From the NCBI GenBank assembly GCA_017541375.1, contig JAFXZE010000008.1, forward strand, positions 6,207 to 70,206: a stretch of DNA of 64,000 nucleotides, read 5' to 3'. The notes below the pieces were generated by a model, which ran no database searches, was not told the origin of the DNA, and worked only from the letters and a program-made list of their open reading frames with translations. Every line of letters begins with the position of its first letter. Position 1 is the stretch's first letter. The translations under genes were made by a program, and so were the position numbers. Source of the stretch: Clostridia bacterium. GTDB taxonomy: Bacteria; Bacillota; Clostridia; Christensenellales; UBA1242. This document shows, piece by piece, positions 4,578 through 64,000 of the stretch.

Positions 4578-5905
4578 TGTTCCAAACATTAGTGAATGCG
4601 TTTAAGCAGAAGGATGTTCGTAAAAAATTATTTGTTATTTTGGGAATTATCCTAATTTATAGACTTGGGTGTTGGCTACCTATTCCAGGACTCAATGTAG
4701 ATGCGTTTTCTACAATGAAGGATGGTAGACCCGACACAGGATTTTTGGATCTACTTAGTAGTGTATCCGGTGGTGCACTATCAAATGGATCGCTACTCGC
4801 TCTCGGAGTAGTGCCGTACATTTCGGCATCAATTATTATGCAATTACTTACAGTTGCAATTCCTTCTCTAGAAAGACTCAGTAGAGCTGGGGAGGAAGGG
4901 CGTAAGAAGATTGCAGTTTATACTAGAATTGCGGCTTTGATATTCTCTGTAATTCAAGCTATCGCAATTGTAGTTGCTTTCTACGGTGATGGTGCAACAA
5001 ACTGTGTGATCAATTTAACTGCGTTTGGTGAGGGTACTCCTGTATGGATTATGCCAACAATTATTGCAGTTGTATTGGTTGCTGGTGGTATGTTTACACT
5101 TTGGCTCGGTGAAAAAATTACTGACCAAGGTATTGGTAACGGTGTATCGTTATTGATTTTTGTAGGTATTATTTCTAGTGCTGGTTTAGCATTGCTTGCT
5201 TCATTTAGGAATGTTTTTGCTTCAAATATTGATGAATTGTGGAATATCATTTTGTTTGCAGTAATACTTATAGCAGTATTTGCGTTGATGGTATTTGTAG
5301 ATTTATCAGAGAGAAAAATTCCAGTGCAGTATGCAAAGCAAGTAAAAGGACGCAAACTTTATGGTGGTCAATCAACAATGATACCGATGAAGCTTAATGC
5401 AAATGGTGTGTTACCGATTATCTTTGCGACAGCTTTGGTAACATTCCCTCAATTATTTACTCAGATGTTCTGGCCTAACAGTGGTTTCTATCAATGGTGG
5501 ACTATGAACCTTGGTGTTGGGACTCCATTATACTTTGTATTCAATGCTATTTTGATTTTCTTCTTTGCTTTCTTCTACGCTCAAATCAGTTTCAATGCAG
5601 AGGAAGTTAGTAGAAACTTGCAGCAAAATGGTGGATTTATCCAAGGGTATAGAGCGGGGAAACAAACTACAGATTATCTAAAACGAGTAAACAACCGAAT
5701 TACATTTTTTGGTGCGTTATACTTGGCTGTAGTATTCATCGTTCCTACACTAATATTCTCACTTGTGCAAGGTGTAAATACAAGTTCGTTAATGACGGCG
5801 TTTAGTGTGACTGGAATGTTGATCGTAGTTAGTGTTGCTCTAGAATTTGACAAACAACTTGATGCTCAGATGTTGATGAAGAATTATCGTGGCTTTTTAA
5901 AGTAA
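4577..5905 (+). CDS. secY: Preprotein translocase subunit SecY
   Basis: 442 aa, multi-TM. Motifs GxxPYISASIIMQLL and LNANGVLPIIFA, and position after rplO. Confidence 0.97.
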   Translation: MFQTLVNAFKQKDVRKKLFVILGIILIYRLGCWLPIPGLNVDAFSTMKDGRPDTGFLDLLSSVSGGALSNGSLLALGVVPYISASIIMQLLTVAIPSLERLSRAGEEGRKKIAVYTRIAALIFSVIQAIAIVVAFYGDGATNCVINLTAFGEGTPVWIMPTIIAVVLVAGGMFTLWLGEKITDQGIGNGVSLLIFVGIISSAGLALLASFRNVFASNIDELWNIILFAVILIAVFALMVFVDLSERKIPVQYAKQVKGRKLYGGQSTMIPMKLNANGVLPIIFATALVTFPQLFTQMFWPNSGFYQWWTMNLGVGTPLYFVFNAILIFFFAFFYAQISFNAEEVSRNLQQNGGFIQGYRAGKQTTDYLKRVNNRITFFGALYLAVVFIVPTLIFSLVQGVNTSSLMTAFSVTGMLIVVSVALEFDKQLDAQMLMKNYRGFLK

Positions 5906-8923: not shown

Positions 8924-9550
8924 ATGGCTAAATATACAGATGCAAGTTGCAAGTTGTGTAGACGTGAAGGTTGTAAGCTATTCCTTAAAGGAGAGCGTTG
9001 TGTAACAGGAAAGTGTGCTCTAGATCGTAGACCTACAGTGCCTGGTCAACATGGAGAAGCATCTTTACGCAAAAAACCAACAGGATATGCATTGCAATTG
9101 CGTGAGAAACAAAAAGTAAAACGTGCTTATGGATTACTTGAAACTCAGTTTAAAAAATATTACTTAGAAGCAAAACGTCAAAAGGGTGCTACAGGTGAGG
9201 TAATGCTCAGTTTGTTAGAGAGGAGACTTGATAATGTAGTATATCGTTTGGGGTTTGGTGTTTCAAGAGTTCAAGCTCGTCAAATAGTTAATCACCGTCA
9301 TATTACTGTAAACGGTAAAATTGTGAACATTCCATCATACTCTGTAAAGGTGGGAGATGTTATTGCGGTAAAGAGTTCTGATCTTGATACTGCACTATTT
9401 AAGGATATCAAAGGTGGCAAAATTATTGCTCCAAAATGGTTAGAGGTAGATGCTAGCACATTAAGTGGTAAAGTGATCGCTAATCCAGCTCGTGATGATA
9501 TCGATCTCAACATTAGTGAACACTTGATAATTGAGTTGTATTCAAGATAA
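8924..9550 (+). CDS. rpsD: 30S ribosomal protein S4 (Zn-ribbon type N-terminus)
   Basis: [26 protein letters not shown]...[14 protein letters not shown]...[15 protein letters not shown]. Confidence 0.97.
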
Positions 9551-15572: not shown

Positions 15573-16097
15573 GTGTCGAGCAAATTAAAATCATTTTATA
15601 TGACATCCGCTATTATTAGCGGTATTATAATGCTTGTATTTATATTTGCAAAACCAGTGCCGTATCAGGGGCGGTTTACGCCTGAAGCGCAAGAAATACT
15701 AAATATTGTGAATGAAGAGCGGCTCAAACATGGGTTATCTCCATTAAAACTTAATCGTAAGCTATGTTTTATGGCTACGGATAAGGCTGTTGACATGCGT
15801 GATAAACATTATTTTGATCATACTAGTCCCACATACGGTTCTCCATTTCAGATGATGAATGATTATGGAATATATTTTACCGCAGCTGGCGAAAACATTG
15901 CGGCTGGATACTATAATTGTAAGCATGTTATGAATGGTTGGATGAACTCCTCAGGGCATAGAGCAAATATTCTCAATGGTTCTTTTACTGAGCTTGGGGT
16001 AGGATATGTAACAGGTGGTTCGTACGGCACTTATTGGGTACAGGAGTTTATCCGTCCATCAGCCAAACAGTCTAGTGGAGTAATATATAAAAAGTAA
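15573..16097 (+). CDS. CAP/SCP domain protein (YkwD-like) with N-terminal membrane anchor or signal
   Basis: FDHTSPTYGSP...GENIAAGY...WMNSSGHRANIL...ELGVGY is the CAP-domain pattern. GTG start after an AGGAG RBS. Confidence 0.85.
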   Translation: MSSKLKSFYMTSAIISGIIMLVFIFAKPVPYQGRFTPEAQEILNIVNEERLKHGLSPLKLNRKLCFMATDKAVDMRDKHYFDHTSPTYGSPFQMMNDYGIYFTAAGENIAAGYYNCKHVMNGWMNSSGHRANILNGSFTELGVGYVTGGSYGTYWVQEFIRPSAKQSSGVIYKK

Positions 16098-49937: not shown

Positions 49938-50024
49938 GGAGAGGTGTCAGAGTGGTCGAATGTGCCGGCCTCGAAATTCGGTATGCCAAAAGCATCGAGG
50001 GTTCGAATCCCTCCCTCTCCGCCA
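49938..50024 (+). tRNA. tRNA-Ser (anticodon CGA), class II with long variable arm, encoded CCA
   Basis: Hand fold: acceptor GGAGAGG/CCTCTCC, T-arm GAGGG-TTCGAAT-CCCTC, variable arm ATGC-CAAAA-GCAT, anticodon loop CTCGAAA. One mismatch each in the D stem and anticodon stem. Confidence 0.8.
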
Positions 50025-50059
50025 GTAGAAACCAATTTGAACCGCAGGGTTCTTTTTTT
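50019..50059 (+). repeat. Left copy of a perfect 41-bp direct repeat (last 6 nt of tRNA-Ser plus its terminator)
   Basis: CCGCCAGTAGAAACCAATTTGAACCGCAGGGTTCTTTTTTT, identical to 59217-59257. Confidence 0.95.
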
Positions 50060-50138
50060 AGTTTTTGCGATAACTAAGAGATTTTTAGGCAAAATTATAG
50101 TTAATTTGTCTTATTATCATTTTAATAAGTTAAGTTTG

Positions 50139-50167
50139 TTGACAAAAAAATAATTATATGTTATCCT
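50139..50167 (+). promoter_or_regulatory. Candidate promoter of the peptide/radical-SAM operon
   Basis: TTGACA-17 nt-TATCCT (consensus -35, weak -10). Confidence 0.45.
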
Positions 50168-50191
50168 TCTACTTGAAGGAGGATTTGCGCT

Positions 50192-50251
50192 ATGGCGAAA
50201 AGAATTACTTTAAAGAAAATGACGATTTACACAAGTTGCATGTCAACCTAA
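50192..50251 (+). CDS. 19-aa candidate RiPP precursor peptide MAKRITLKKMTIYTSCMST, absent from the ORF track
   Basis: GAAGGAGG RBS 9 nt upstream of the ATG. Basic N-terminal half and a Thr/Ser/Cys/Tyr-rich C-terminal half. Directly upstream of two radical-SAM genes. Confidence 0.6.
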   Translation: MAKRITLKKMTIYTSCMST

Positions 50252-50263
50252 TTTAAGCCACAG

Positions 50264-50297
50264 CTAAATTCATCATTTGATGAGTTTAGTTTTTTTT
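50264..50297 (+). terminator. Strong intrinsic terminator/attenuator between the peptide gene and the maturase genes
   Basis: 11-bp stem CTAAATTCATC/GATGAGTTTAG (one G-U pair), 4-nt loop, then 8 T. The RBS of the next gene starts right after the T-run. Confidence 0.8.
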
Positions 50298-50307
50298 AGG
50301 AGATGTT

Positions 50308-51213
50308 ATGGTTTTATTTTTTATTATTCACACAAAATGTGATTTATGCTGTAAAGATTGCTTTTATTCAAAAGGATATGAAAAAAGGGATTCTAGCGAA
50401 TTAAAGCTAGAAGATATAGAATTATTTGTTAAAAAAGTTTACGACTTAAGTTTTAAAACAATTATTCTGACTGGAGGAGATCCTCTTTATTCAAAGCGTA
50501 AATATGTTACCTATGCATTAATCGAATGTTTAAAAAAATACAAGTTAAGAGTTATAATTAATACTAGTGGCGCAAAATTGAATTCTATCGATATACAAAC
50601 TTTAATCAACTTAAATGTTGATAGAATAGATTTTTCGATTAATTCACTTGATGAAAATATTCATAATTCTGAACGAGGAAATTATCAAGACACTGTTTTT
50701 GCGATGAAAAGTCTTTTGAAAAATGGGTATGATAAAATCACTACTACTACAGTTATAACAGAAGAAAATGCGTATAAAGCACTGGAAACACTTCGATGGT
50801 TAAAATCTTTAGGTATAAAAGACATAAGATATCAACCTTTATTTAAACAAACAGCCCAAAATTATCAAATAATAAGAGATGCAATGTTGGAATGTAATAA
50901 AGAATTTGGTAATTCGCATTCAGAGTATTATTTATTACAGTGCGATAGAGCATATAATAACAAAATTCCTCAAGAGAATTCAGTATGTATGATGGGGAAA
51001 AATTTATTTGTAAGTGATGCATTAGGGAATATTTATCCTTGTTTTCATCGATTCGATGTAAATTTTGGAAATATCTTTACAGATGATACTTCATTTTTAA
51101 AGGACAAATTAATACATAATAGTTTTTATTCAGAAAGGCATGATTGTTTTGGTAAACATTGTGTTTCATTGTTCGATAACGGTGATTTTTGGAAAAAGGA
51201 AAAAGTTTTATGA
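50308..51213 (+). CDS. Radical SAM enzyme with C-terminal twitch/partial-SPASM-like Cys cluster
   Basis: CDLCCKDC (CX3CX2C) at residues 11-18, GGDPL, C-terminal CMMGKNLFVSDALGNIYPC...CFGKHC. Confidence 0.85.
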   Translation: MVLFFIIHTKCDLCCKDCFYSKGYEKRDSSELKLEDIELFVKKVYDLSFKTIILTGGDPLYSKRKYVTYALIECLKKYKLRVIINTSGAKLNSIDIQTLINLNVDRIDFSINSLDENIHNSERGNYQDTVFAMKSLLKNGYDKITTTTVITEENAYKALETLRWLKSLGIKDIRYQPLFKQTAQNYQIIRDAMLECNKEFGNSHSEYYLLQCDRAYNNKIPQENSVCMMGKNLFVSDALGNIYPCFHRFDVNFGNIFTDDTSFLKDKLIHNSFYSERHDCFGKHCVSLFDNGDFWKKEKVL

Positions 51214-52487
51214 AAAAGTACGTATACCCCTACAAGATATTTACAAATGAAAAAGTAATGTATCATTTTAATGTGGATAAGTTGTATATAACAGAAGTTA
51301 ATAATAATCATTTAGACTTATTGAATAAACTTGCTCAATTTGATTACGAAGAAGTGCAAGCTAACATTTTAGATGAGGAGCAAAAACAGTGTCTGAACGA
51401 TTTGATTGAATTTGAAATGATAACTGATGAGCAACCTAATATAAAAGAGCCAACTGTAGTTTGTAAACCTACTTCCTATCGTATAGTTTTAACGGAACAA
51501 TGTAACTTAGCCTGTGTTGAGTGTTTCGCAACAAAAAATATTAATTGTTTGAAAACTATGGATAGCGAAACACTGTTTGAGGTGCTTGAATATTCGTTTA
51601 AGAATAATAACAATAAATCTACACAGTATTGTTTTTTTGGTGGGGAACCTTTAATAAAGTTTGATTTAATAAAAGAAGCTGTTGCTAAAATTGAAGAAGC
51701 AGAAAAGAATCATTTAGTAAAGAATCCAGTTTTATTGATTACAACAAATGGAACGATATTAAATGATGAAATAATTGATTTTTTTATTGATCATAATGTA
51801 AGAGTAGGCGTGTCTATTGATGGTCCTAAAGAAATACACGACAAATTGCGACCATATAAGGATTTACGTGGGACTTTTGATGATGTAAAAGAAAACTATA
51901 TGAAAATGTATAATAAAGGAGTTAATCTACATGTTTTAATTACTCCTAATCCTGATTTTTTGGGTAATCTAAAAGATATTGTAAAGTATGTGCTTGAAAA
52001 TTTTCCAATGAAAGAATTGACAATTAATACCCCCTTTAAATACGATACTTTGCAATGGTCCGTTGATGGAGAAAAATATGCTCATATATTATTTGATATT
52101 TATAAATTAACCCAAGAATTTGGCGTTATCCTCGATTCTGCATTGTCGGTAGTGTTGGGGAGTATATCAAATGGCATTAGAAGACAAACTCCGTGTTCTA
52201 TTTTAGGAGATGAATTTATGACTTTGGTTACTCCTCATGGGGAAATGTCAAGATGTGCACAAAAATATGATTCCCAAATTTCTTTGGGAAACATCAAAAA
52301 CGTGAGTGTATCGGATAATTGTAAGAATTGTTATGCATACGGTTTTTGTGGTGGAGTATGCCCTGCATATAAGGTTTTGTCTGGTATGTCTACTGATTCA
52401 AACAAGTGTAAATTTATGCATGCTATATTACCTAATTTAATAAATTATTTAAAAATGTTTGAGGAGACATCTGATGATCTTCAGTAA
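51210..52487 (+). CDS. Radical SAM/SPASM peptide maturase with ~95-aa N-terminal (RRE-position) extension
   Basis: CNLACVEC (CX3CX2C), GGEPL. Complete SPASM signature CSILGDEFMTLVTPHGEMSRC...CKNCYAYGFCGGVC (CX2CX5CX3C). ATGA start/stop overlap with the upstream gene; an alternative start exists at 51189. Confidence 0.85.
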   Translation: MKKYVYPYKIFTNEKVMYHFNVDKLYITEVNNNHLDLLNKLAQFDYEEVQANILDEEQKQCLNDLIEFEMITDEQPNIKEPTVVCKPTSYRIVLTEQCNLACVECFATKNINCLKTMDSETLFEVLEYSFKNNNNKSTQYCFFGGEPLIKFDLIKEAVAKIEEAEKNHLVKNPVLLITTNGTILNDEIIDFFIDHNVRVGVSIDGPKEIHDKLRPYKDLRGTFDDVKENYMKMYNKGVNLHVLITPNPDFLGNLKDIVKYVLENFPMKELTINTPFKYDTLQWSVDGEKYAHILFDIYKLTQEFGVILDSALSVVLGSISNGIRRQTPCSILGDEFMTLVTPHGEMSRCAQKYDSQISLGNIKNVSVSDNCKNCYAYGFCGGVCPAYKVLSGMSTDSNKCKFMHAILPNLINYLKMFEETSDDLQ

Positions 52488-53637
52488 AGATATGTTTTTT
52501 ACAACCAAGTTTATTGATAGTGATCCCATATATGTAAAATTAGAAAAAGCAGGGTATATTAAACAAATAAGCTCTGGTATATATGCTTACTTAGAGCTTT
52601 TTAATAAATTATTAAGTAATATCTGTAATGAGATAGGTAACATATTTAAAGAATACAACATTAGTGAAGTTAAAATGCCTCTGTTACAGGATGCTAATTT
52701 ATGGAAAAACTCTGGGCGATTTGACATTTATGGTAAAGGTTTGTTTGTTACGGGGGAAAATGCTGAATATGTTTTGAGTGCAACAAGCGAAGAGGCGATT
52801 ATTAAATTGATAGATCTATTAGGGATTGAAGAGAAGCAATTACCATTTTGTGTATATCAGATTTCAGAAAGGTTAAGGAATGAATTACGTACTGCTTATG
52901 GTTTATTTCGAACAAAAACTTTCACACTAGCAGATTGTTATGCGATTGTCAATAATACAAATGATTTGGCACATTATACCCATATATTTAAAGAAATTTT
53001 TCACAAAATAGGTGTAAAATTTAATTTGGCACTGCATGAGGCTATTCACTTGGGACACAACCAGACCATTTCCATTTGGTGTAATTCAAAACTAAATCAA
53101 AGCCACCCCATAGTATGCAAAAATTGCAATAATTCATTTCGTAATAAATCTTTAATTACTAAATGTCCTATATGTAATTCTGCTAATGTAGCACGAGCCG
53201 TGGGGGCTGAAATTGGTGATATAGCAACAATACAGCAACTAATTAGTACAAAAAAAATTAATAATACTCATATTGTTACAATGGGAATTGGGTTAACTAG
53301 GCTTATTCAATTAATTGCAGAGCAAAAAGTATATAAAAATGGCTTTGATTGGGATTATTGGTATGCTCCATACAAAGCATATATTGTGGCTAGTAATGAA
53401 AGGAGAAACGAGGCACAAAAAATATATGACATACTAAATAGTAAGATAGATGCTCTTTTCGATAATAGAGCAAAAAGTATAGCCACGAAACTAATAGATG
53501 CTGATTTGATCGGTTGCCCATATAAAATCATATTAGGTAATAATACATGTATCGATACGGTCGAAATAAAAAGAAGTAATAAAATGTTAAAACTAAAAAG
53601 TGAGCAAGTTTTAAAATATATATTAGATAATAGATAG
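52474..53637 (+). CDS. Minimal bacterial-type ProRS-like class II aaRS paralogue: no INS editing domain, CxxC...CxxC insert, degenerate motifs
   Basis: AGYIKQISSGIYAYLELF, MPLLQDANLWKNSGRF and LRNELRTAYGLFRTKTFTLADCYA align with the motif 2 region ([25 protein letters not shown]). MGIGLTRLIQLIAEQ is motif 3. An HGTP-type anticodon-binding domain follows (YKAYIV...LFDNRAKS...DADLIGCPYKIILG). The 14-nt overlap with the upstream gene has a GAGGAG RBS. Confidence 0.75.
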   Translation: MIFSKDMFFTTKFIDSDPIYVKLEKAGYIKQISSGIYAYLELFNKLLSNICNEIGNIFKEYNISEVKMPLLQDANLWKNSGRFDIYGKGLFVTGENAEYVLSATSEEAIIKLIDLLGIEEKQLPFCVYQISERLRNELRTAYGLFRTKTFTLADCYAIVNNTNDLAHYTHIFKEIFHKIGVKFNLALHEAIHLGHNQTISIWCNSKLNQSHPIVCKNCNNSFRNKSLITKCPICNSANVARAVGAEIGDIATIQQLISTKKINNTHIVTMGIGLTRLIQLIAEQKVYKNGFDWDYWYAPYKAYIVASNERRNEAQKIYDILNSKIDALFDNRAKSIATKLIDADLIGCPYKIILGNNTCIDTVEIKRSNKMLKLKSEQVLKYILDNR

Positions 53638-53664
53638 TTGAAATAACTAGTTTAGGAGAATAAA

Positions 53665-55092
53665 ATGAATAAACAAAGAGAATTAGTAAAAAAAGATAAC
53701 ATGGCAGAGTGGTATCAAAATGTTATAGAAAAGGCTGATTTAGCCGAACATTCACCAGTAAAAGGCTGCATGACCATAAAACCTTATGGTTATGCTATTT
53801 GGGAATTAATAAGAAATGAATTAGATATTTTAATAAAAAAACATGGGGCAAAGAATATGAGTTTTCCTCTTTTTATTCCTTATTCATATTTGTCAAGAGA
53901 GAAGGATCATGTTGAAGGATTTAGTCCTGAAATTGCTGTGGTTACACACGCTGGTGGTAAAAAATTACAAGAACCTTTGGTCGTTCGACCAACGTCCGAG
54001 ACGATCATTCATGAAAGTATGAGGAGATGGATTTATTCATATAAAGATTTGCCCCTAAAGTTGAATCAGTGGTGTAATGTTGTGCGTTGGGAAAAGCATC
54101 CTCGTTTATTTTTAAGAACTTCCGAATTTCAATGGCAGGAAGGGCATACTGCACATGCAACGGAACAAGAAGCACGACAAGAAGTGGAAAGTATGGTTGA
54201 ACTTTACTACAATTTTATTAAAGATGTTTTAGCTATTCCTACAGTAAAGGGACAGAAATCAGAAAAGGAAAAATTTGCAGGAGCGGTTGATTCATATAGT
54301 GTAGAGGCACTTATGCCAGATAATAAAGCTGTTCAAATGGGAACAATTCATTACTTAGGTTTGAATTTTTCAAAAATAGCAGATGTGAAATTTGTAGATG
54401 AAAGTGGTGCTGAAAACTTTGTATATATGACAAGCTGGGGAGTTTCAACAAGGCTCATAGGGGCATTGATAATGACTCATGGTGATGATAAAGGATTAGT
54501 TCTTCCACCGAAAGTAGCACCAGTTCAAATTGTTATTGTACCTATTGGTAATACTTTAGAAACAGCGCAACGCTTATTTAATGAATTAAACAATAGTGGT
54601 TTTAGAGTGGAGTTAGATGATCGTCAAGATGTGCGACCAGGAGCTAAATATTTTGAAAATGAAATGAGAGGTATTCCTGTCAGAATAGAAATAGGTGAAA
54701 GGGAAATTGAGAATAATGAAATACAGTGTGTAAATAGAGTTACAGGAAAGAGGACGGTATTATCACTTGGTTCAGATTATATACAATCTATAAAAGATTT
54801 ATTACAAGAAATTCAATCTACACTTTTAAAAAATGCAACAGAAAGAATGAGAAATAGCGTGGTAGAAGCGAAAACAAAAGAAGAATTTTCCGATTTGATA
54901 GAAAACCAAAAGGGTTTTATAAAAGCTTGTTGGTGTGATGAAAAAGAATGTGAAGTAAGCATTAAAGATAAAACTGGAGCAAATAGCAGAAATTTACCGT
55001 TTGCCGAAAACGAAAAAGAATTGACTGATTGTACTTGTGTTTGGTGTGGTAAAAAGGCTAAGAAAATTGCATATTTTTGTAAAGCTTATTAA
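53665..55092 (+). CDS. proS: Prolyl-tRNA synthetase, archaeal/eukaryote-like type (full length, with C-terminal Zn-binding domain)
   Basis: EWYQNVIEKADLAEHSPVKGCMTIKPYGYAIWE, RPTSETII, FLRTSEFQWQEGHTAH, SWGVSTRLIGALIMTHGDDKGLVLPP. C-terminal CWCDEKEC...CVWCGKKAK...KAY ends in the conserved terminal Tyr. Confidence 0.9.
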   Translation: MNKQRELVKKDNMAEWYQNVIEKADLAEHSPVKGCMTIKPYGYAIWELIRNELDILIKKHGAKNMSFPLFIPYSYLSREKDHVEGFSPEIAVVTHAGGKKLQEPLVVRPTSETIIHESMRRWIYSYKDLPLKLNQWCNVVRWEKHPRLFLRTSEFQWQEGHTAHATEQEARQEVESMVELYYNFIKDVLAIPTVKGQKSEKEKFAGAVDSYSVEALMPDNKAVQMGTIHYLGLNFSKIADVKFVDESGAENFVYMTSWGVSTRLIGALIMTHGDDKGLVLPPKVAPVQIVIVPIGNTLETAQRLFNELNNSGFRVELDDRQDVRPGAKYFENEMRGIPVRIEIGEREIENNEIQCVNRVTGKRTVLSLGSDYIQSIKDLLQEIQSTLLKNATERMRNSVVEAKTKEEFSDLIENQKGFIKACWCDEKECEVSIKDKTGANSRNLPFAENEKELTDCTCVWCGKKAKKIAYFCKAY

Positions 55093-55110
55093 TAACTGGG
55101 GAAAATATTT

Positions 55111-56214
55111 ATGAAGCCATATAGTCTAAATAAAAATGATAAGATAGCAATAATTTCTCTATCGGGTGGAAGTTTAGGAGAAGCATACAATAAGCCAATA
55201 GTTGAATTGGGTATAAAGAGATTAAAAGATTTGGGTTTTGTCACTGTTTTTACACCCAATAGCCTAAAGGGTATAGATTTTTTACATAACAATCCAAAGG
55301 CACGAGCCGAAGATTTAAAGGCGGCTTTTAGGGATGATAGCATTAAAGCAATTCTATGTGCAATTGGTGGGGATGATACAATACTAACGATTCCATATCT
55401 ATTAAGTGATAGTGAATTTATTTTAAATGTAAAAAAGCATCCGAAAGTTTTTTTCGGATACTCGGATTCAACAATAAATCATTTAATGTTTTGTAAGTTA
55501 GGATTACAAACATACTATGGAATAAGTTTTATAACAGATTTTTGCGAATTAGCGCCCAATATGATTCCTTATACTTTAAATAGTTTTGTAAATTTTTGTA
55601 ATAATCCAAAAGCCTTTTCCATTACGCCAAGTAAGTATTGGTATAGGGAAAGAGATGATTATTCAATCAAGAATTTAGGATTTGAAAGAATTGCTGTTGA
55701 AGAGGAGCGAGGATACATCTTTTTTAATAGTATGAAAAAAGTAAAAGGTGAATTATTTGGTGGTTGCATAGAAATCTTATCTGCTTGTTTGGGAATAATA
55801 GACAAAGATTGGTTTTATCATAAAGAAATTGTAGATATTTTTTATAAGATTGCCGATAAATTTAAGCTTTTTCCGACAAAGGATTATTTGAAAGGCAAAA
55901 TTCTATTTCTAGAATCAAGTGAGGTGTTTATTAAACCTGAAAAATTGAAACAATTTCTATTGAAACTTGAAGAATTGGGAATACTAGCAGTTTTGAATGG
56001 TATTATCGTATCAAAACCTATGGAAGAAAAATATTTTGATGAGTATTTATCTGTTTATAAAGATGTATGCTCAAAATATAGTTTTCCTGTAATATATAAT
56101 TTTAATTTGGGGCATTCATGTCCGAGAAATATATTGCCATATGGTGTTAAATGTGAAATTGATCCTGTAAACAAGACGATTAGAATAGTCGAAAAAATGA
56201 CTTGTGACAATTGA
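55111..56214 (+). CDS. Peptidase S66 (LD-carboxypeptidase / MccF-like serine hydrolase), long 367-aa form
   Basis: IAIISLSGGS, nucleophile elbow GYSDST, C-terminal NLGHSCPRNILPYG (catalytic His region). The length fits the MccF-like rather than the short LdcA-like subgroup. Confidence 0.8.
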   Translation: MKPYSLNKNDKIAIISLSGGSLGEAYNKPIVELGIKRLKDLGFVTVFTPNSLKGIDFLHNNPKARAEDLKAAFRDDSIKAILCAIGGDDTILTIPYLLSDSEFILNVKKHPKVFFGYSDSTINHLMFCKLGLQTYYGISFITDFCELAPNMIPYTLNSFVNFCNNPKAFSITPSKYWYRERDDYSIKNLGFERIAVEEERGYIFFNSMKKVKGELFGGCIEILSACLGIIDKDWFYHKEIVDIFYKIADKFKLFPTKDYLKGKILFLESSEVFIKPEKLKQFLLKLEELGILAVLNGIIVSKPMEEKYFDEYLSVYKDVCSKYSFPVIYNFNLGHSCPRNILPYGVKCEIDPVNKTIRIVEKMTCDN

Positions 56215-56259
56215 GCATTTATCTATCTAGTTAAGCCTATCTTGCGCCGCCAATTTTTT

Positions 56260-56281
56260 AGGAGCTTCGGCTCTTTTTTTG
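56260..56281 (+). terminator. Intrinsic terminator ending the operon
   Basis: AGGAGC-TTCG-GCTCTTTTTTT (short stem, UUCG loop). Confidence 0.6.
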
Positions 56282-56470
56282 TTATTTATGATAAAGACAC
56301 TTACTTAGCACCTATACCCACAAACAAAAGCAAATATATAAGGAGATAGGATATAAACTTTTTGTAAATTAATTTTTAATTAGAAATTTTGTCGTCTATA
56401 AACTGGGGTTTAGTTGCTAAAAATTTCTGTTTATGCTATATTAAGAGAAAACAAAAAAGCGAGGTAAAAA

Positions 56471-58843
56471 ATGAACAAAGAAAACGGTGTGCTAAGTGGA
56501 CCGATTACAAAAGAGGAAATAGAGTTACTCATTTCCAATCCAAAGAAGTTTTGGGAAGGAGTAACCAAGATTGATAAGAGGACTTTTAAGGGCTGTATCT
56601 CTCTAAAGGACATAACTATTCCCGATAGTATAACAAGTATTGGTGACGGAGCATTTGATGACTGTGACAGACTAGAAAGTATTACTATTCCTGAGAGTGT
56701 AACAAGTATTGGTAAGTCGGCCTTTTATGGATGTAAAAATCTCAATAGCATCAACATTCCCGATAGTATAACAAGTATTGGTGAAGATGCTTTTTCGGGT
56801 TGTGAAAGTCTAGAGAGAATTACTATTCCTGATAGTGTAACAAGTATCGGCGATGGTGCTTTTTTTGGTTGTGAAAGACTAGAAAGTATTACTATTCCTG
56901 AAAGTGTAACGAGCATTGATGATTATACTTTTCTGAACTGTAAACAACTCAATAGTATCATCATTCCTAATAGTGTAACCAATATTGGATACAAAGCGTT
57001 CGTTGGGTGTACGAGTTTAACTAGTGTAACAATCCCAAATAGTGTAACAAGTATTGGAGCAATGGCTTTCAGTAGCTGTAGTGGATTAACCAGTGTAACA
57101 ATACCCAATAGTGTGACAAGTATTGAATACCTGGCTTTCTGTAGGTGTACTAGCTTAACCAGTGTAACAATACCTAATAGTGTAAAAAGTCTTGGAAGTA
57201 GGGCATTCGAGATGTGTACTGATTTAACCCGTATTACTATGCTGATGGGAATTAGTTGTGGCTCTGATTCTGTTGAGTGGGATAAGTTTAAATTTATACA
57301 ATTTCATGAAGATGGAAAAAACTTAAGCCTACTAAGCTCTCCACCGAAAAATGCTACAAATTGCATCGCTGCATCTCCAGACACCATGTTTAAGTGTGTC
57401 ACAAGTAGAAATTATGGAAAAAATACCATTAAACAGCAAAAGTTAAATCAAGAATTGGAAAAGCAGGGGCGCAAACCACTAAAATTGCCTGATTTTATGC
57501 TAGATACTTTTCCGCACGAGCAATTTAACAATATCTTTTACAACAATAATATCACTAGATGGCGAAATTTAGTGAAAACTCTTGAATTTGATAAATTACC
57601 AGATACCAAAAAAAATAATAGCCTAACCGATTTGTTGAAAATATATTATGCCATAGGTGGTTTTTCCGAGGTTCAAAGCGATAGTATAAGTGCATATAAC
57701 TATATTCTAGAGCACGTTGTGTCGAAAGAAGCTACATCTAGCGCAAACGGAGATTTTATTCACAAAGCGTTTTCAAAAGTGCAACTTGAAGGGCCGTATA
57801 ATAAAGATTTTGCTAAATTTTTTATGATGTATTATGATGACCCAGACTTCAAGCGGTTTAATCTCAAAGATGAAGATGATATGTTTATCGATTCGAAGAG
57901 CTTTTGTTGGGAGGCAGCCCACAACTCGTTTGGAAGAATTCAAAAAGATTTCCCAGGTAAGGTTGTAAGTGGCACAACTGGCAGGGAGGATTTATTGGAT
58001 CCACCATTTGTGATGAAGCATAGTATAATAGTTCAATATGAGAATGTTGAGCCAGGGAATGAATCGTTAGCTGAGTTAGTGGGGCGGTATGGCTATACGC
58101 AAAGTCAGTTTGAGTATATTCAGACCATCTACAACTATGCCAAAGCGCACAAAGATGAATATGTTATCATGGCTGACAAAGCAAATGAAGATGATCCAGT
58201 GAAATTTAGAGCGTTAGCAAAAGATGATCCTCTTGGTTTTGTATTGGGTGATATCACTAATTGTTGCCAACACATTGGGGGAATGGCACAAAGCTGTGTG
58301 GACGATGGATACAAAAATCCTAATGCAGGTTTTATAGTATTTGAAGAAAGTATACTAGATGATAATGGATTAGACACAGGAGAAAAGCGAGTGTTAGCAC
58401 AAGCCTACGTGTGGTATGACCCAGATACCAAGACAGTTTGCTATGACAATATTGAAATACCGGATAAGATTTTGGCAAAATTGCGCAAGGGAGATAAGCA
58501 TGGCAGCCTGATATCGGCAAAATCTTTGATTAGTGCAGTGGAAAAATCTGCTGAGTCAATAATACTTGCGATGAACAGAAAAGGAATTGAGGTAGAGCGA
58601 GTAACCACAGGAGAAGGGTATAATGACTTGAAGAAAGAATTGCAATCAAACTTTCCTCGAGAAAGTCCACCAAAATCGAAGGGCCCTAAAGGTGTATATA
58701 CAGATGCAAAAACAGCCCAATATATACTTTCTACATATGACAAAGTGACCAAGAAATATGGCGGTATAGTAAAGGATGCTCTAAAAGAGGCGACAAAAGG
58801 CCTAAGTGAAATAAAAACAGCCACTCAAGGCCGACAAGCATAA
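56471..58843 (+). CDS. BspA-type (LRR_5) leucine-rich-repeat protein without signal peptide, ~500-aa uncharacterised C-terminal domain
   Basis: About 8 repeats of ITIP(D/E/N)SVTSIG..AF.GC..L.S. The N-terminus MNKENGVLSGPITKEEIELL is hydrophilic. No motif recognised in the C-terminal region (..GDITNCCQHIGGMAQSCVDDGYKNPNAGFIVFEE..). Confidence 0.8.
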   Translation: MNKENGVLSGPITKEEIELLISNPKKFWEGVTKIDKRTFKGCISLKDITIPDSITSIGDGAFDDCDRLESITIPESVTSIGKSAFYGCKNLNSINIPDSITSIGEDAFSGCESLERITIPDSVTSIGDGAFFGCERLESITIPESVTSIDDYTFLNCKQLNSIIIPNSVTNIGYKAFVGCTSLTSVTIPNSVTSIGAMAFSSCSGLTSVTIPNSVTSIEYLAFCRCTSLTSVTIPNSVKSLGSRAFEMCTDLTRITMLMGISCGSDSVEWDKFKFIQFHEDGKNLSLLSSPPKNATNCIAASPDTMFKCVTSRNYGKNTIKQQKLNQELEKQGRKPLKLPDFMLDTFPHEQFNNIFYNNNITRWRNLVKTLEFDKLPDTKKNNSLTDLLKIYYAIGGFSEVQSDSISAYNYILEHVVSKEATSSANGDFIHKAFSKVQLEGPYNKDFAKFFMMYYDDPDFKRFNLKDEDDMFIDSKSFCWEAAHNSFGRIQKDFPGKVVSGTTGREDLLDPPFVMKHSIIVQYENVEPGNESLAELVGRYGYTQSQFEYIQTIYNYAKAHKDEYVIMADKANEDDPVKFRALAKDDPLGFVLGDITNCCQHIGGMAQSCVDDGYKNPNAGFIVFEESILDDNGLDTGEKRVLAQAYVWYDPDTKTVCYDNIEIPDKILAKLRKGDKHGSLISAKSLISAVEKSAESIILAMNRKGIEVERVTTGEGYNDLKKELQSNFPRESPPKSKGPKGVYTDAKTAQYILSTYDKVTKKYGGIVKDALKEATKGLSEIKTATQGRQA

Positions 58844-58866
58844 ATAGAGGAGGTAGGAATAGGAAT

Positions 58867-59106
58867 ATGAAAATTGAAACGGAAATAAAACAGGCGCAAA
58901 AAGCATTGGATACGGTTTTACAAAAACTAAATGAACTCGAAAAAGAAAAAGCTGGTATTATGAAAAAATATACAAAAGCAAACGATGCTGAAAAGAAAAA
59001 AATTGAAAAAGAAATGTCTGCTAGCGTAAAAAAGTACCAAAAACTATCTGAAGCTGCGTTGCTAGTGAGTCAAAAGATAAAGAAAATGAAAAGTCAATGC
59101 TGTTGA
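58867..59106 (+). CDS. Small Lys/Glu-rich coiled-coil protein (79 aa), unknown function
   Basis: GAGGAGG RBS. Heptad-like sequence ending QCC. Confidence 0.55.
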   Translation: MKIETEIKQAQKALDTVLQKLNELEKEKAGIMKKYTKANDAEKKKIEKEMSASVKKYQKLSEAALLVSQKIKKMKSQCC

Positions 59107-59216
59107 AAAATGTAGTACGTTTTTTTATGTTTTAGGTGGAAGGAAATAATATGAGTAATTTTGATAATTTGGCTTAAATACCAAAGAAAGTCGGTTCTTA
59201 TTATACACCTCTTGCG

Positions 59217-59257
59217 CCGCCAGTAGAAACCAATTTGAACCGCAGGGTTCTTTTTTT
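59217..59257 (+). repeat. Right copy of the perfect 41-bp direct repeat (tRNA-Ser 3' end plus terminator)
   Basis: Identical to 50019-50059. Also acts as a terminator hairpin GAACC-GCAG-GGTTC followed by T7. Confidence 0.95.
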
Positions 59258-59410: not shown

Positions 59411-61012
59411 ATGACAAAATATGTGTTTGTAACTGGTGGGGTAGTGTCTGGAATTGGTAAAGGGATAATTGCTGCAAGCCTTGGTAGATTATTAAAAATG
59501 CGAGGGTTTAAGATTCAAGTTGAGAAATTTGACCCATATTTAAATGTTGACCCAGGTACTATGAATCCTAATGAACATGGTGAAGTGTTTGTAACAGACG
59601 ATGGAGTCGAGACCGACTTGGATTTAGGTCATTATGAGAGAATGATAGACATTAGTTTGAATAAGTTTTCAAATCTTACGAGTGGAAAAGTGTTGTGGAG
59701 TGTGTTAAATAAAGAGAGAAATGGGGAGTTTTTAGGTAAGACTGTGCAGATTATTCCTCATGTAACCAATGAGATAAAGAGTTTTATTCGTCAAAATGTG
59801 GAAAATACTAAGCCAGATGTATTGATAACGGAAATTGGGGGAACGATTGGGGACATAGAAAGTCAATCATTCATTGAGGCTATTAGACAATTTTCGCTCG
59901 AGGTAGGGCTAGAAAACTGTTTATTTATCCATGTTTGTTTAGTTCCATTTATTTCTGGGTCAGATGAGTATAAAACAAAACCTACTCAACATTCCGTGAA
60001 AGAGTTGCAGGGAATGGGAATTAGACCAGATATAATCATAGCTCGAAGTGACACAGCGATTGATGAAAGTTTGATTAAAAAAATTGCAATGTTTTGTAAT
60101 GTGAAAGAAGATTGTGTGATAAACGACATAACACTTGACGACTTGTATTTTTGTCCCAACTTTTTACATGATAAAGGCTTTGATGAAGTGGTGGTTAGAG
60201 AGTTGAATTTACCAGCAACCAAGATTGATTTTGCCGATTGGGATAAAATGCTTAAGAAAATAAAAAATCGGAGTGGAAACGTAACCATTGCAATTGTTGG
60301 AAAATATTGCAAACTTCGTGATTCATACATTTCAATTGTGGAAGCATTGAATCACGCTGGATGTGAAAATGGTGTTTTTGTAAACATTAAGTGGATTGAG
60401 TCGGAAGATATTAAATCTGAAGAAGATGCTAAAGACCAACTTTTAGATGTGCAAGGAGTGTTGGTTCCGGGGGGATTTGGTAGTCGTGGAATAGAAGGGA
60501 AAATTATTGCATGCAAAGTGGCGAGAGAAAATAAAATTCCGTATTTTGGAATTTGCTTAGGAATGCAGATTGCTGTGATTGAATTTGCTAGAAATGTTGC
60601 AGGCATCAAAGAAGCTAATTCGAGGGAATTCGCTCAAAAAGGAGATTTTGTAATCGATTTGATGCCAGATCAAGTTAACCAGCAAAAAGGTGGAACAATG
60701 CGACTTGGCGCCTATGATTGTGAAATAGTGCCAAATACAATTATGGAAAAATCATATAAATCAATGAAAATTTCAGAAAGGCACAGACATAGATATGAGT
60801 TTAACAATGATTACAGAGATATTTTAGTGAAAAATGGCTTAATTGTTTCGGGGGTTAATCCTCAAAAAAATATTGTTGAAACAGTTGAATTTAATAATCA
60901 TGGGCAATATTTTATCGGTGTGCAGTTTCATCCCGAATTTAAGAGTAGACCCACGTCGCCACATCCGTTGTTTGTCGCTTTTGTAAACGCAGCTAAAGAA
61001 TTAAAAAAATAA
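59411..61012 (+). CDS. pyrG: CTP synthase
   Basis: MTKYVFVTGGVVSGIGKGI..., glutaminase domain GICLGMQ...VQFHPEF. Confidence 0.98.
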   Translation: MTKYVFVTGGVVSGIGKGIIAASLGRLLKMRGFKIQVEKFDPYLNVDPGTMNPNEHGEVFVTDDGVETDLDLGHYERMIDISLNKFSNLTSGKVLWSVLNKERNGEFLGKTVQIIPHVTNEIKSFIRQNVENTKPDVLITEIGGTIGDIESQSFIEAIRQFSLEVGLENCLFIHVCLVPFISGSDEYKTKPTQHSVKELQGMGIRPDIIIARSDTAIDESLIKKIAMFCNVKEDCVINDITLDDLYFCPNFLHDKGFDEVVVRELNLPATKIDFADWDKMLKKIKNRSGNVTIAIVGKYCKLRDSYISIVEALNHAGCENGVFVNIKWIESEDIKSEEDAKDQLLDVQGVLVPGGFGSRGIEGKIIACKVARENKIPYFGICLGMQIAVIEFARNVAGIKEANSREFAQKGDFVIDLMPDQVNQQKGGTMRLGAYDCEIVPNTIMEKSYKSMKISERHRHRYEFNNDYRDILVKNGLIVSGVNPQKNIVETVEFNNHGQYFIGVQFHPEFKSRPTSPHPLFVAFVNAAKELKK

Positions 61013-61068: not shown

Positions 61069-61565
61069 TTCATTAGGTTAAGATGTGAAAGATTGTGGAT
61101 AGTACCGATAAATTCAGAAATTTGGGTGAATAAAAATTCTGTCGTCTTTAGCCCTTTAAATTCCGCCAAATAATAATGATATGAGCCGTAGACTTTTTTT
61201 GATTTTTGCGATATATAAAGACTTTTCTTAATTTTTGTTTTTGCGGAATGGATATAAATTAAAGTTGCGTTTTTATAAAAAAGGGATTGTTATTTTGTCT
61301 ATTTTAGGAATGCTTTTAATTCTATCATTGATTTATTATATAATTAAAAGAGTTAAATCCAATTAGTATATTCTAGTTTAAATCGTTATTAGTAGAATTC
61401 ATACATAAATATCTTCTCAATTTTATTGAAGAGTATATGGAGTAAATTGAGCGGGATATGATATGATTAATGAAGTAAAAAACAGGCCTATAATCAGGTC
61501 TGTTTTTATTGTTATTATGTCATTCTGTTAGTTGTAAAAAATATCTCCAAAACATGTTATTTTGT

Positions 61566-61595: not shown

Positions 61596-61691
61596 ATATG
61601 ATATAAGATTTTTATCTTAAATAAACTAGAAATGTGTAACATGTTTAGTAAGTGAGTGAGCAACTAAGCTTAAGCTCTTGGCATTTTGCGG

Positions 61692-61745
61692 TGCAGCGGC
61701 GTCGCTGCAAAAAGGAAAAGCTTTCAAGGCGGAGCGGTAGCTGCT
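61692..61745. repeat. GC-rich intergenic repeat, partial copy C
   Basis: Hairpin TGCAGCGGCGTCGCTGCA is the reverse complement of the copy B hairpin, with 1 mismatch. AAGGCGGAGCGGTAGCTGC matches copy A AAGGTGGAGCGGTTGCCGC (16 of 19). Confidence 0.6.
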
Positions 61746-61764
61746 ATCAAAAAGGAGATATATT

Positions 61765-64000
61765 ATGAAAAAAATGGGGAATCAAGCAAATATCTGTGCA
61801 TATGTAGGCTTTACGCTTACACTAGTTTTAGCGATGGTGGGGATATTCGCTTTTGGTTTAGGTTCTCATACGCGTACTCGCGCGGATAGTGTTGAGGCTG
61901 CAACAAGTGGCTACTGGACCTATACCGTGGCTAGTAACAAAGCCACAATTACCGCCTACAGCGGTACGGCAACTGACTTGACTATTCCGTCAACATTGGG
62001 CGGCTATTCGGTCACGGCTATTGGAGCAAGTGGCGCTTCTGCTACTTTCCTTACAAATGTACGTACGACCTTGACTAAAGTAACTATTCCAGCAAGTGTA
62101 ACAGAAATTAATTCAAGTGCTTTTAGTCGATGCACTGCGCTGACTACTGTAGCATATGCAGATGGGAAATGTGCAAACCTAAACTATTATAGAACAAGTG
62201 CTTTTTATGGATGTACAGCTTTAGTAGATTTTAAGTTTTCAAAAGGTTTCAAACAAGGATATGAATCCGTTTTATCTGGGTGTACTAACTTACAGCGTGT
62301 AGGGTTACCTATCAAAGCATACAGTTCAACTGTACCATTTACATTTGGTCTATGGGGATGTTTTAATAATTGTACATCACTTAGAGAGTTTTATCTAATA
62401 GATTATGGTGACAATGTAACAAAACCTTTCCATGGCGTAGATGAAAATGGGGTTTTATATCGTTTAGGATACAATAATAATCAGCCATATTATGGTGTTG
62501 TCGAAATTGTTCCTAATGCCTTTAATGGTGTTAATGGGTGTTTTACTATCCCAAGTACGGTTTACGATTTTTATAATTATTCATTTTTTGGTAGTAAGCT
62601 TACTAAGATTAAAATACCAAGCAATAATACAAACATGCTTAAGCTTGATTATGCTCCAATTAATAATTCAAATATTGCCGCTTTCGAGGTTGAATCTGGC
62701 AACCCTTCGCTTTATGCTATAGATGGGGTATTATATGGTAGGGTTTCATCTACACAGGTAAGATTACTTGCGTATCCCGAAAAGAAAGCTGGTAGTTCAT
62801 TTGTTATACCCAATGATGTTACACATGTTTGTCAAAATTCTTTTATGAATATTGAACAACTTACCAGCATTACTATTGGTAATAGTGTAACAAATATTGA
62901 CTATGGTGCTTTTAGGGGCACTTCAATAACATCCTTGCATATTCCAGCAAGTGTTAAATATATAAATTCTACTAGTAATATCTTTCCCAATACTGTAACT
63001 ACACTTACTGTAGATCCAGCAAATACCAATTTTAAAAGTGAAAATAATGCGATTTATTCCAAAAATGGGGAAACATTGTATTTCATAGCTCCACAACTAA
63101 CAGCTTTTTCCATTCCTGATGCTGTTAAAACAATAAGTGATACTGCTTTTTATAGCTCAAAAGTTGCCAACATAACAATTCCTGCTAGTGTTTCATTTAT
63201 TGGAGGTCAGTCATTTCGTGGCTCTAACAGTCTGGCATCTGTAACTTTTATGCACACCAGCATACCAACAGGCTTTACAATGGGGGGAAATGCATTTAAT
63301 AGTATCTCCGCACTTACAACAGTTAATCTTCAAAATCGTAATGTGTATAATTATTTCAAGTCGCATTTTACCTCAGGTTATTTTGCTAACGCACCAAGTT
63401 GTTTTAAGTGTCTTGATTACACAGTTACGCTCACGCTAAACAACAACGGAGACACAAGCACAAAGCTCTACTCTTGGGGGAATGGCAGCAATTATTCGAT
63501 GTATAGCAACGCCAACCACACCACATCGGCTTCTAGTGTTACTGTACCTACAAGAGCGGGATACACTTTTGATGGATATTGGCTCGATAGCGATGGTGAT
63601 TCCACTCAATACATCACAAAAACGGGGACTTTTGTGAGTGGAATAGCTGATATAGACGCGGATTCTACGCTCTATGCTCACTGGATTCCAGCCACGCCTC
63701 TTCTGTGGTCCACTCTTGGTGGAGCTGCAAAAATCTACCCAGTAGATAGCGAAACTGGAATGGTGCGTGCTGAGGTTACAGAAGCCTACGCAGGCTACAC
63801 TTTCGCTGGTTGGAGCCTCAATGACGGCACAAACATCAGTTCATACACAGTAGAGGGTGGGAATCCGAAAAAGGTTGTGGATATCCCCGCAAGCGTGCTA
63901 AATGGCAAAATTCTCATCGCATCGTTTAAGCAAAATAACACAGTTGTGGATACTTACGCAAACACGACACACAACTATCTTGTAGCGACAACAAACGGCG
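61765..64000 (+). CDS. Surface protein, 3'-truncated by the window edge: signal/anchor, BspA-type LRR_5 repeats, Listeria-Bacteroides (Flg_new) repeats
   Basis: Own translation from the ATG at 61765 (AAAGGAG RBS): MKKMGNQANICAYVGFTLTLVLAMVGIFAF..., ..LTIPSTLGGYSVTAIG.., ..ITIPASVSFIGGQSF.., then ..PTRAGYTFDGYWLD.. and ..AGYTFAGWSLNDG... I saw no stop in this frame up to 64000. Confidence 0.8.
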   Translation, partial: MKKMGNQANICAYVGFTLTLVLAMVGIFAFGLGSHTRTRADSVEAATSGYWTYTVASNKATITAYSGTATDLTIPSTLGGYSVTAIGASGASATFLTNVRTTLTKVTIPASVTEINSSAFSRCTALTTVAYADGKCANLNYYRTSAFYGCTALVDFKFSKGFKQGYESVLSGCTNLQRVGLPIKAYSSTVPFTFGLWGCFNNCTSLREFYLIDYGDNVTKPFHGVDENGVLYRLGYNNNQPYYGVVEIVPNAFNGVNGCFTIPSTVYDFYNYSFFGSKLTKIKIPSNNTNMLKLDYAPINNSNIAAFEVESGNPSLYAIDGVLYGRVSSTQVRLLAYPEKKAGSSFVIPNDVTHVCQNSFMNIEQLTSITIGNSVTNIDYGAFRGTSITSLHIPASVKYINSTSNIFPNTVTTLTVDPANTNFKSENNAIYSKNGETLYFIAPQLTAFSIPDAVKTISDTAFYSSKVANITIPASVSFIGGQSFRGSNSLASVTFMHTSIPTGFTMGGNAFNSISALTTVNLQNRNVYNYFKSHFTSGYFANAPSCFKCLDYTVTLTLNNNGDTSTKLYSWGNGSNYSMYSNANHTTSASSVTVPTRAGYTFDGYWLDSDGDSTQYITKTGTFVSGIADIDADSTLYAHWIPATPLLWSTLGGAAKIYPVDSETGMVRAEVTEAYAGYTFAGWSLNDGTNISSYTVEGGNPKKVVDIPASVLNGKILIASFKQNNTVVDTYANTTHNYLVATTNG

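Follow-up and report, generated by a model that had tools for sequence, protein, structure and literature searches.

The tRNA-Ser(CGA) locus and its direct repeats

The window analysed here is the whole 64-kb stretch C20:6207-70206 of a Clostridia bacterium genome (G000; 1.36 Mb, 35 contigs, whole-genome guanine-plus-cytosine (GC) content 0.353). Between window positions 50019 and 59257 lies a segment bracketed by two copies of a 41-mer, CCGCCAGTAGAAACCAATTTGAACCGCAGGGTTCTTTTTTT, the first of which begins inside a gene for tRNA-Ser(CGA). The segment carries a cluster of peptide, radical-SAM and prolyl-tRNA synthetase (ProRS) genes followed by the gene of a leucine-rich-repeat (LRR) protein, and the CTP synthase gene pyrG lies beyond it. 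The tRNA gene, the sites and the cassette genes described below are all on the + strand. A reading made from the sequence alone had taken the segment for a single, integrase-less genomic island; the comparisons reported here point instead to repeated site-specific insertion at the tRNA gene's 3′ end.

The target gene, tRNA-Ser(CGA), occupies 49938-50024 (ARAGORN; Rfam tRNA model, 46.9 bits), and its last 6 nt, CCGCCA, begin the repeat. The left, attL-like copy (site i, 50019-50059) comprises this CCGCCA and a 35-nt arm with a terminator hairpin (50039-50052) and a T7 run, so that it reads as the end of the tRNA plus a GAACCGCAGGGTTC-T7 hairpin. The right copy (site iii, 59217-59257) was recovered by exact-match search, and the terminator scan flagged the hairpin (GAACC-GCAG-GGTTC, then T7) as terminator-like in both copies. 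No match was obtained in 100 shuffles, and two copies are all that the 1.36-Mb genome contains when up to three mismatches are allowed. The exact repeat and the tRNA-plus-terminator make-up of its left copy, as described in the sequence-only reading, were thus both borne out. An intact tRNA gene is accompanied by a displaced 3′ fragment in direct orientation, as in tRNA islands, with only 6 nt of the repeat contributed by the tRNA. The likeness to a decayed T-arm that had been noted just left of the right copy is not significant by itself: its best local alignment was equalled by 4-7% of shuffled or random sequences, and this alignment covers anticodon-arm bases, not the T-arm. The spacing between GGTTC and CCGCCA, 5 nt wider in the element arm than in the tRNA, was also considered as attP/attB half-site geometry of the serine-integrase kind, but was judged too speculative and not used.

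Outside this locus the repeat motif is rare. Among 120 genomes of the family, none beyond the window's own genome carried it apart from one match with three mismatches; scans of viral contigs and of genome contigs returned 0 matches each, and a scan of JGI metagenomes matched two contigs. Near-copies of the 35-nt arm occur in the contigs L057 (30/31), L056 and L054 and at C7:15690 of the same genome. The sequence-only reading had allowed that the 41-mer might be a common terminator module. A core of 22-31 nt does recur at these four places, but always in att-like settings, and the motif is missing from the 120 family genomes.

Further CCGCCA sites and the layout of the proposed array

Two sites beyond the repeat pair had been missed, a third at 56240-56252 and a possible fourth at 61163. 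Site ii (56240-56282) forms the boundary between two modules and consists of TCTTGCGCCGCCA at 56240-56252 and a terminator of its own (56260-56275, with a T-run). TCTTGCGCCGCCA is common to sites ii and iii (56240-56252 equals 59210-59222, 13/13) and is found at no other place in the genome. Site iv (61163-61199), 3′ of pyrG, is made up of TTCCGCCAA, a T7 run and then TTTTTGCGATA, with no clear hairpin. TTTTTGCGATA is shared, following both site i and site iv, and TTCCGCCAA is also present at sites close to large serine recombinase (LSR) genes in C7, L088 and L074. CCGCCA occurs five times on the + strand of the window, and four of these occurrences (50019, 56247, 59217 and 61163) are intergenic with a hairpin and/or T-run behind them. 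The pattern CCGCCA-N5-45-T7 is found seven times genome-wide, four of them at this locus.

This distribution suggests that the segment 50019-59257 is not one island but two cassettes of a longer array, in which pyrG is probably included. From left to right the array would consist of tRNA-Ser, site i, the peptide/radical-SAM/ProRS cluster with an S66 peptidase gene, site ii, the LRR gene with a 79-aa gene and a relic of a His_Phos gene, site iii, pyrG and the weak site iv.

A large serine recombinase linked to a homologous site

The link to a recombinase comes from the left, element-side arm of site iii (59129-59216), in which the last codons of a His_Phos gene survive as a relic, NFDNLA and a stop, up to 59177. 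Positions 59172-59222 are identical to G000:C7:12501-12550 at 46 of 51 positions (E 8e-9), and an alignment of site iii with C7:12458-12595 spans ∼140 nt and both arms. On C7 the homologous site ends an intact His_Phos gene (KFENVA and a stop) and lies ∼0.9 kb downstream of an LSR gene at C7:10122-11618 (498 aa; Resolvase, Recombinase and Zn_ribbon_recom domains). Downstream of this LSR there is the same kind of array as in the window: a CCGCCA site at 11795, followed by His_Phos; one at 12545, followed by DUF1848, a 105-aa gene and a HipA-like kinase; and one at 15611, followed by a flank identical (26/26) to the 3′ flank of tRNA-Ser(CGA) in L054 and then by TTTGAACCGAAAGGTTC.

The LSR gene closes an element of ∼11.4 kb (C7:407-11.8k) that is homologous to an element in L085 and GCA_918262735.1. 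The C7 element encodes a REP_ORF2-G2P replication protein and many small open reading frames (ORFs), with the LSR at its right end; its proteins are 42-84% identical to those of the GCA_918262735.1 element, and the left end lies at TGGGATTCTGGCG in both genomes.

The genome's single tyrosine recombinase (C14:140473-141018) is unlinked to any site. A second LSR (C7:465.8k) adjoins tRNA-Leu, where no direct repeat of the tRNA-Leu 3′ end was found. Two small resolvase-type genes with identical search scores (C26:1255-1554 and 9180-9479) stand ∼8 kb apart on a 12.7-kb contig, and may belong to a transposon or a plasmid with repeated ends.

LSR loci and cassette arrays in relatives

Among the best 11 non-self LSR loci, seven have a tRNA or tmRNA gene within 1.5 kb, arranged 3′ end to 3′ end. 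The adjoining RNAs are tRNA-Ser with the anticodons CGA, TGA (three times) and GGA, tRNA-Glu and tmRNA; further LSR-tRNA cases in G022 and G038 are known by their coordinates only. An identical 60-nt arm stands straight after CCGCCA beside the LSRs of G007 (tRNA-Ser CGA, same genus) and G036 (tRNA-Ser TGA, another family), so this arm travels with the element. In G007 there are, in addition, two incomplete tRNA 3′ ends, 16 and 21 nt long, each of which finishes with CCGCCA.

A parallel to the window is found in G003 (L095; G003:C18, 1800-6129), where a 37-nt repeat, 92% identical between its copies, recurs 4.3 kb after tRNA-Ser(CGA) and starts at the same CCGCCA, giving an architecture of CCGCCA plus ∼31 nt. 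The enclosed 4.3 kb holds transglutaminase-like and UDG genes and no recombinase, while DUF6119 and LSR genes follow just beyond the repeat, the LSR 1.9 kb further on. The contigs L085 and L086 encode the same LSR protein followed by different genes, defence-type ones among them, with CCGCCA-plus-hairpin sites between them: HEPN_RiboL-PSP and a 152-aa gene, then Trypsin_2 and a 363-aa gene, in L085 (11620-15993), and GmrSD in L086 (3096-5204). Two sites of L085 are near-identical over ∼100 nt, as a direct repeat, and the arm of the L086 site matches the arm at G000 C7:12551. The genome with the closest LSR (G004, 74%) was uninformative; the DNA between that LSR and tRNA-Glu is GC-rich and codes for nothing, so it is no His_Phos gene.

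A different tRNA gene may represent a second hotspot. The relative L056 carries a formate/nitrite transporter gene 90% identical to that of G000, together with a near-perfect hairpin motif (L056:293-314, against G000:C14:75848-75869) and an extra gene; at the corresponding position of G000, tRNA-Ser(GGA) and a degenerate motif precede the transporter. Among the other tRNA calls of G000, ARAGORN reported tRNA-Pro(AGG) at C7:114859-114935 and tRNA-Leu(AAG) at C12:179161-179246. Apart from Arg(ACG), bacteria seldom have A34 anticodons.

Conspecific contigs and the search for an empty site

The conspecific sample comprised 11 aligned contigs, taken from the 15 recorded for an identical pyrG together with one that carries alr. 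The cargo of the segment is present in all 11 at no less than 99.1% identity, and the repeats are invariant. Given this near-identity and the presence of the segment throughout, neither the density of single-nucleotide differences nor presence and absence is informative. The segment is fixed, with nothing to indicate that it still moves; every sampled conspecific carries it, which gives current mobility no support.

More distant genomes offer little purchase on an empty site. The tRNA-Ser(CGA) loci of 16 genus-mates have no synteny with alr or pyrG, these genomes being distant (alr 40-44% identical), and in G006 synteny stops at alr. The next relatives are either too distant for such a comparison (alr at most 59% identical) or represented by cut contigs. 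The nearest non-conspecific contig with DNA, L054 (identity to G000: GreA 98%, ClpC 91%, alr 53%), is of the latter kind: it retains the order ComEC-holA-alr-tRNA-Ser(CGA), and the 3′ flank of its tRNA gene is longer and ends in TTTGAACCGCAAGGTTCTTTTT, which equals the repeat hairpin at 21 of 22 positions, where the contig stops.

Cargo genes and composition

Module 1 opens with a promoter-like site (TTGACA-17-TATCCT), a 19-codon ORF and a hairpin, all within 50139-50291. The ORF (50192-50251) encodes MAKRITLKKMTIYTSCMST and is trailed by a hairpin with a 13-bp stem (50262-50291); both peptide and hairpin are conserved in L065 (MAKRICFKKIKLYTSCMST). Two radical-SAM genes follow (50308-51213 and 51210-52487; PF04055, PF13353), called identically in conspecific contigs, and then a gene for a 387-aa ProRS-like class II aminoacyl-tRNA synthetase paralogue (52474-53637; Pfam). 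This paralogue scores under every curated cut-off (NCBIfam TIGR00409, 180 bits against 306.7), and among 5.8 billion proteins only three 90%-identity clusters reach at least 64% identity to it, the two besides its own being 64-68% identical. The next gene encodes a family-I (archaeal-type) ProRS (53665-55092; TIGR00408, 557.7 bits against a cut-off of 437). The last gene of the module (55111-56214; PF02016, PF17676) encodes an S66 peptidase of the LD-carboxypeptidase/MccF type. In the conspecific metagenome contig L055 the peptidase is called as two genes (117 and 242 aa), split at or near 55463, which is that gene's sole difference from the window; because of this split, the peptidase may be dispensable. 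Module 2 (56471-59106) carries a BspA-type LRR protein (56471-58843; Pfam) and a 79-aa protein without a family (58867-59106).

The sequence-only reading had described the whole segment as clearly more AT-rich than its flanks. This holds for 50060-56252, with a GC content of 0.305 (2.7th percentile of same-size genome windows) and third-codon-position GC of 0.18-0.24 in the five genes against a genome mean of 0.289. It does not hold for module 2 (56253-59216), which at 0.358 is average for the genome, and the segment as a whole (0.322) falls at the 6.5th percentile.

The cluster of peptide, two radical-SAM proteins, ProRS-like protein and ProRS also occurs in L065, L066 and L067, in other genomic contexts. 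The L065 version has ftsZ downstream and lacks both the S66 peptidase and a tRNA. Its genes are 64-82% identical to those of G000 and the housekeeping genes of L065 only 55-61%, which argues for horizontal transfer of the cluster. L065 also contains a 66-aa relic of a class II synthetase anticodon-binding domain (5290-5500; PF03129, E 7e-10) between the cluster ProRS and ftsZ, and it looks as if this host, too, had a synthetase gene of its own cut short. At the ProRS loci examined in seven genus-mates the cluster is missing, and a literature search for a biosynthetic cluster of this type gave no match.

ProRS genes and pyrG

Besides the ProRS-like paralogue of the cluster, three ProRS-related loci were found in the genome: the ProRS gene of the segment and two loci on C7. 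The ProRS of the segment is the sole family-I ProRS of the genome, and family I is the type used by relatives; its identity is 82% to the ProRS that the cluster encodes in L065 and L067, 72-74% to those of G006 and G009 and ∼50% to those of other genus-mates. That it might be the only ProRS of the genome was ruled out by a gene at C7:392064-393314 encoding a 417-aa, INS-less family-II ProRS-like protein (TIGR00409, 361.6 bits against a cut-off of 306.7), which is absent from all 16 genus-mates. The remaining locus, C7:240113-240430, is a 106-aa relic with the ProRS-C_1 domain only, and lies near the genes found on either side of the intact ProRS gene of G006 and G009. This arrangement fits a history in which the cluster came first and the native ProRS was then replaced.

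The right flank itself is probably foreign, with pyrG (59411-61012; Pfam) a likely further acquired cassette. The gene is absent from all 16 genus-mates, and genomes of the same family were among the non-matching ones in an order-wide search, in which 139 of 201 genomes had pyrG with a best identity of 66-68%. A site in which tRNA-Ser is directly followed by pyrG is therefore not the expected ancestral state. Downstream of pyrG lies a giant LRR/DUF285 gene (5333 aa in L033) with three paralogues in the genome at 60-63% identity; nearly all differences among the conspecific contigs fall in its 5′ part (window 61600-64000).

Proposed mechanism and alternative explanations

We favour, with moderate confidence, the view that the 41-bp copies are att-type junctions from a series of site-specific insertions at the tRNA-Ser(CGA) 3′ end, that an LSR was the most likely enzyme and that the recombinase has since been lost. 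The common crossover region would be the terminal CCGCCA of the tRNA gene, and the 35 nt to its right would be an arm borne by the element that re-supplies the tRNA with a terminator. Because it is element-borne, such an arm would recur at the next-but-one junction, have near-copies elsewhere and be absent from the 120 family genomes. The enzyme would most likely have been a member of the LSR family found at G000:C7:10122-11618; its gene at this array would have been deleted, leaving the neighbouring His_Phos gene as its last codons only. We infer LSR catalysis of the insertions, the order of events and the present immobility of the array. What remains of the original island proposal is thus the att footprint at the tRNA 3′ end and a decayed, integrase-less insertion, for which G003 provides a parallel, G007 and G036 the shared arms and C7 an LSR-linked homologue; its notion of a single island is not retained.

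Two other histories could produce a similar picture. The segment could be a classical tyrosine-integrase island, in which an mv4-like integrase recognised the 3′ end of tRNA-Ser(CGA) and left the 41 bp as its identity segment, the integrase gene was later deleted and the LSR link is coincidental. Long identity segments are usual for tyrosine integrases and not for LSRs. The standard signature of tyrosine integrases is an intact tRNA gene accompanied, in direct orientation, by a displaced piece of its 3′ end; a 2014 paper stated that tRNA genes were not a known target of serine integrases (PMC4383910), and phage mv4 is reported to integrate at a tRNA-Ser 3′ end (bioRxiv 10.1101/2023.11.06.565760). 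Yet the one tyrosine recombinase gene of this genome stands apart from the sites, the duplicated tRNA portion is only 6 nt long, the right-hand arm is homologous to a site linked to an LSR, and in relatives it is LSRs, not tyrosine integrases, that adjoin tRNA-Ser genes, so that we regard this history as distinctly improbable.

The other history involves no site-specific event at all: homologous or illegitimate recombination, as might follow DNA uptake, would have duplicated or captured the terminator module of the tRNA, which was then kept as a terminator, with gene conversion preserving its identity. Both copies are predicted terminators in places that call for one, behind the tRNA and behind the 79-aa gene; similar hairpins (TTTGAACCGMARGGTTC) are present at C7:15690, L054, L056 and L057; the segment is fixed in the population without a sign of mobility; and a ComEC-type competence gene lies two genes upstream of alr. 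This account nevertheless appears unlikely when set against the exact start of the repeat at CCGCCA in the tRNA, repeated in the independent G003 repeat and the partial copies of G007, and against the 13-mer common to sites ii and iii, which lies on the side opposite the terminator. A generic terminator would not be expected to be missing from the 120 family genomes, and the arms travel with LSR elements between distant genomes. Identity of the 41 bp by chance or low complexity, to which an AT-rich genome and T-runs inflating short similarities would contribute, has already been refuted by the shuffles, the copy number of two in 1.36 Mb and the GC-rich hairpin within the 41-mer, and its likelihood is negligible.

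Several observations weigh against serial insertion by an LSR. No integrase, recombinase or transposase was detected by Pfam among the eight largest ORFs of the segment, and a tblastn search of the window with the LSRs of this genome produced matches at chance level only; on this point the sequence-only reading was correct, and the segment contains neither a recombinase nor a remnant of one. No empty site, circle junction or polymorphism was seen among the 11 conspecific contigs or assemblies. Module 2 and pyrG are native in composition, and site iv is weak. Neither a tRNA nor CCGCCA is present at the left end of the C7 element, and therefore the CCGCCA sites may not be that element's own att sites. 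LSRs of the C7/L085 type and those adjoining tRNA genes (G007, G036) lie on opposite sides of the site and are only 41-54% identical, so two sub-families have been pooled here. In textbook large serine integrases, attP and attB share only a short core, and no 41-bp repeats result. Under the proposal the 35-nt arm would have to be both borne by the element and recurrent.

Implications

A broader reading is possible but doubtful: an abundant LSR family of small-genome gut Bacillota may dock repeatedly at the CCGCCA that ends tRNA-Ser genes and at similar sites next to its own gene, and so build integron-like cassette arrays insulated by terminators. The cassettes seen under this reading would include defence genes, the peptide/ProRS biosynthetic cluster and even pyrG. 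If it is true, this would be a tRNA-targeting cassette-array system of serine recombinases, which the 2014 Islander paper did not know for serine integrases (PMC4383910). Should the reading proposed here be right, tRNA-gene islands of reduced gut Bacillota would be built by LSRs and not by tyrosine integrases. It would extend the principle of SCCmec/ECC, multi-cassette arrays whose units lack a recombinase of their own, to tRNA targets, and would account for the acquisition of a rare peptide/ProRS cluster and the return of pyrG in a 1.36-Mb genome. The sites are also candidate attB/attP pairs for an abundant LSR family (>4000 close homologues, E<1e-100), and as such could be of use in developing integrase tools. 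What follows in practice is more limited: the repeat is best treated as a genuine att footprint, and the segment as fixed and giving no indication of present movement.

Comparison with known systems

Tandem islands at tRNA and tmRNA genes of the Islander type (PMC4383910) are alike in that an intact tRNA and a displaced 3′ fragment bracket foreign DNA, with units in series at one tRNA gene. They differ in that the tRNA contributes just 6 nt to the duplication here, the remainder of the repeat lying downstream of the gene, and no unit has its own integrase; the on-board integrase of classical tRNA islands is missing from the segment, and the associated recombinases are LSRs, not tyrosine integrases. 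Phage mv4 shares the tRNA-Ser 3′ end as target but relies on a tyrosine integrase, and no such gene is linked to the sites here.

Integron arrays resemble the present one in having short cassettes of one to a few genes beside a recombinase gene, structured sites between them and contents that differ among near-identical elements. Here, however, there is no IntI tyrosine recombinase, no attI or attC and no common promoter, and each site ends in a terminator. The array does not belong to the integrons: the only tyrosine recombinase of the genome is unlinked, and the sites are CCGCCA plus a terminator and not attC-like.

In SCCmec/ECC, LSRs insert at the 3′ end of rlmH, with flanking repeats of ∼50 bp, recombinase-less remnants and variable cargo (PMC6222049). 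The present system differs in its target, the 3′ end of tRNA-Ser and not rlmH; in its core, CCGCCA and not TATCATAA; and in having a single LSR gene, not a ccrA/ccrB pair, which sits in a small 11-kb element of Rep/LexA type. As in SCC/ECC, the locus displays insertion at the 3′ end of a conserved gene and direct repeats that both flank and separate the units. With a conserved-gene 3′ end, flanking repeats, remnants and variable cargo in common, SCCmec/ECC is the nearest mechanistic analogue of the tRNA-Ser(CGA) array.

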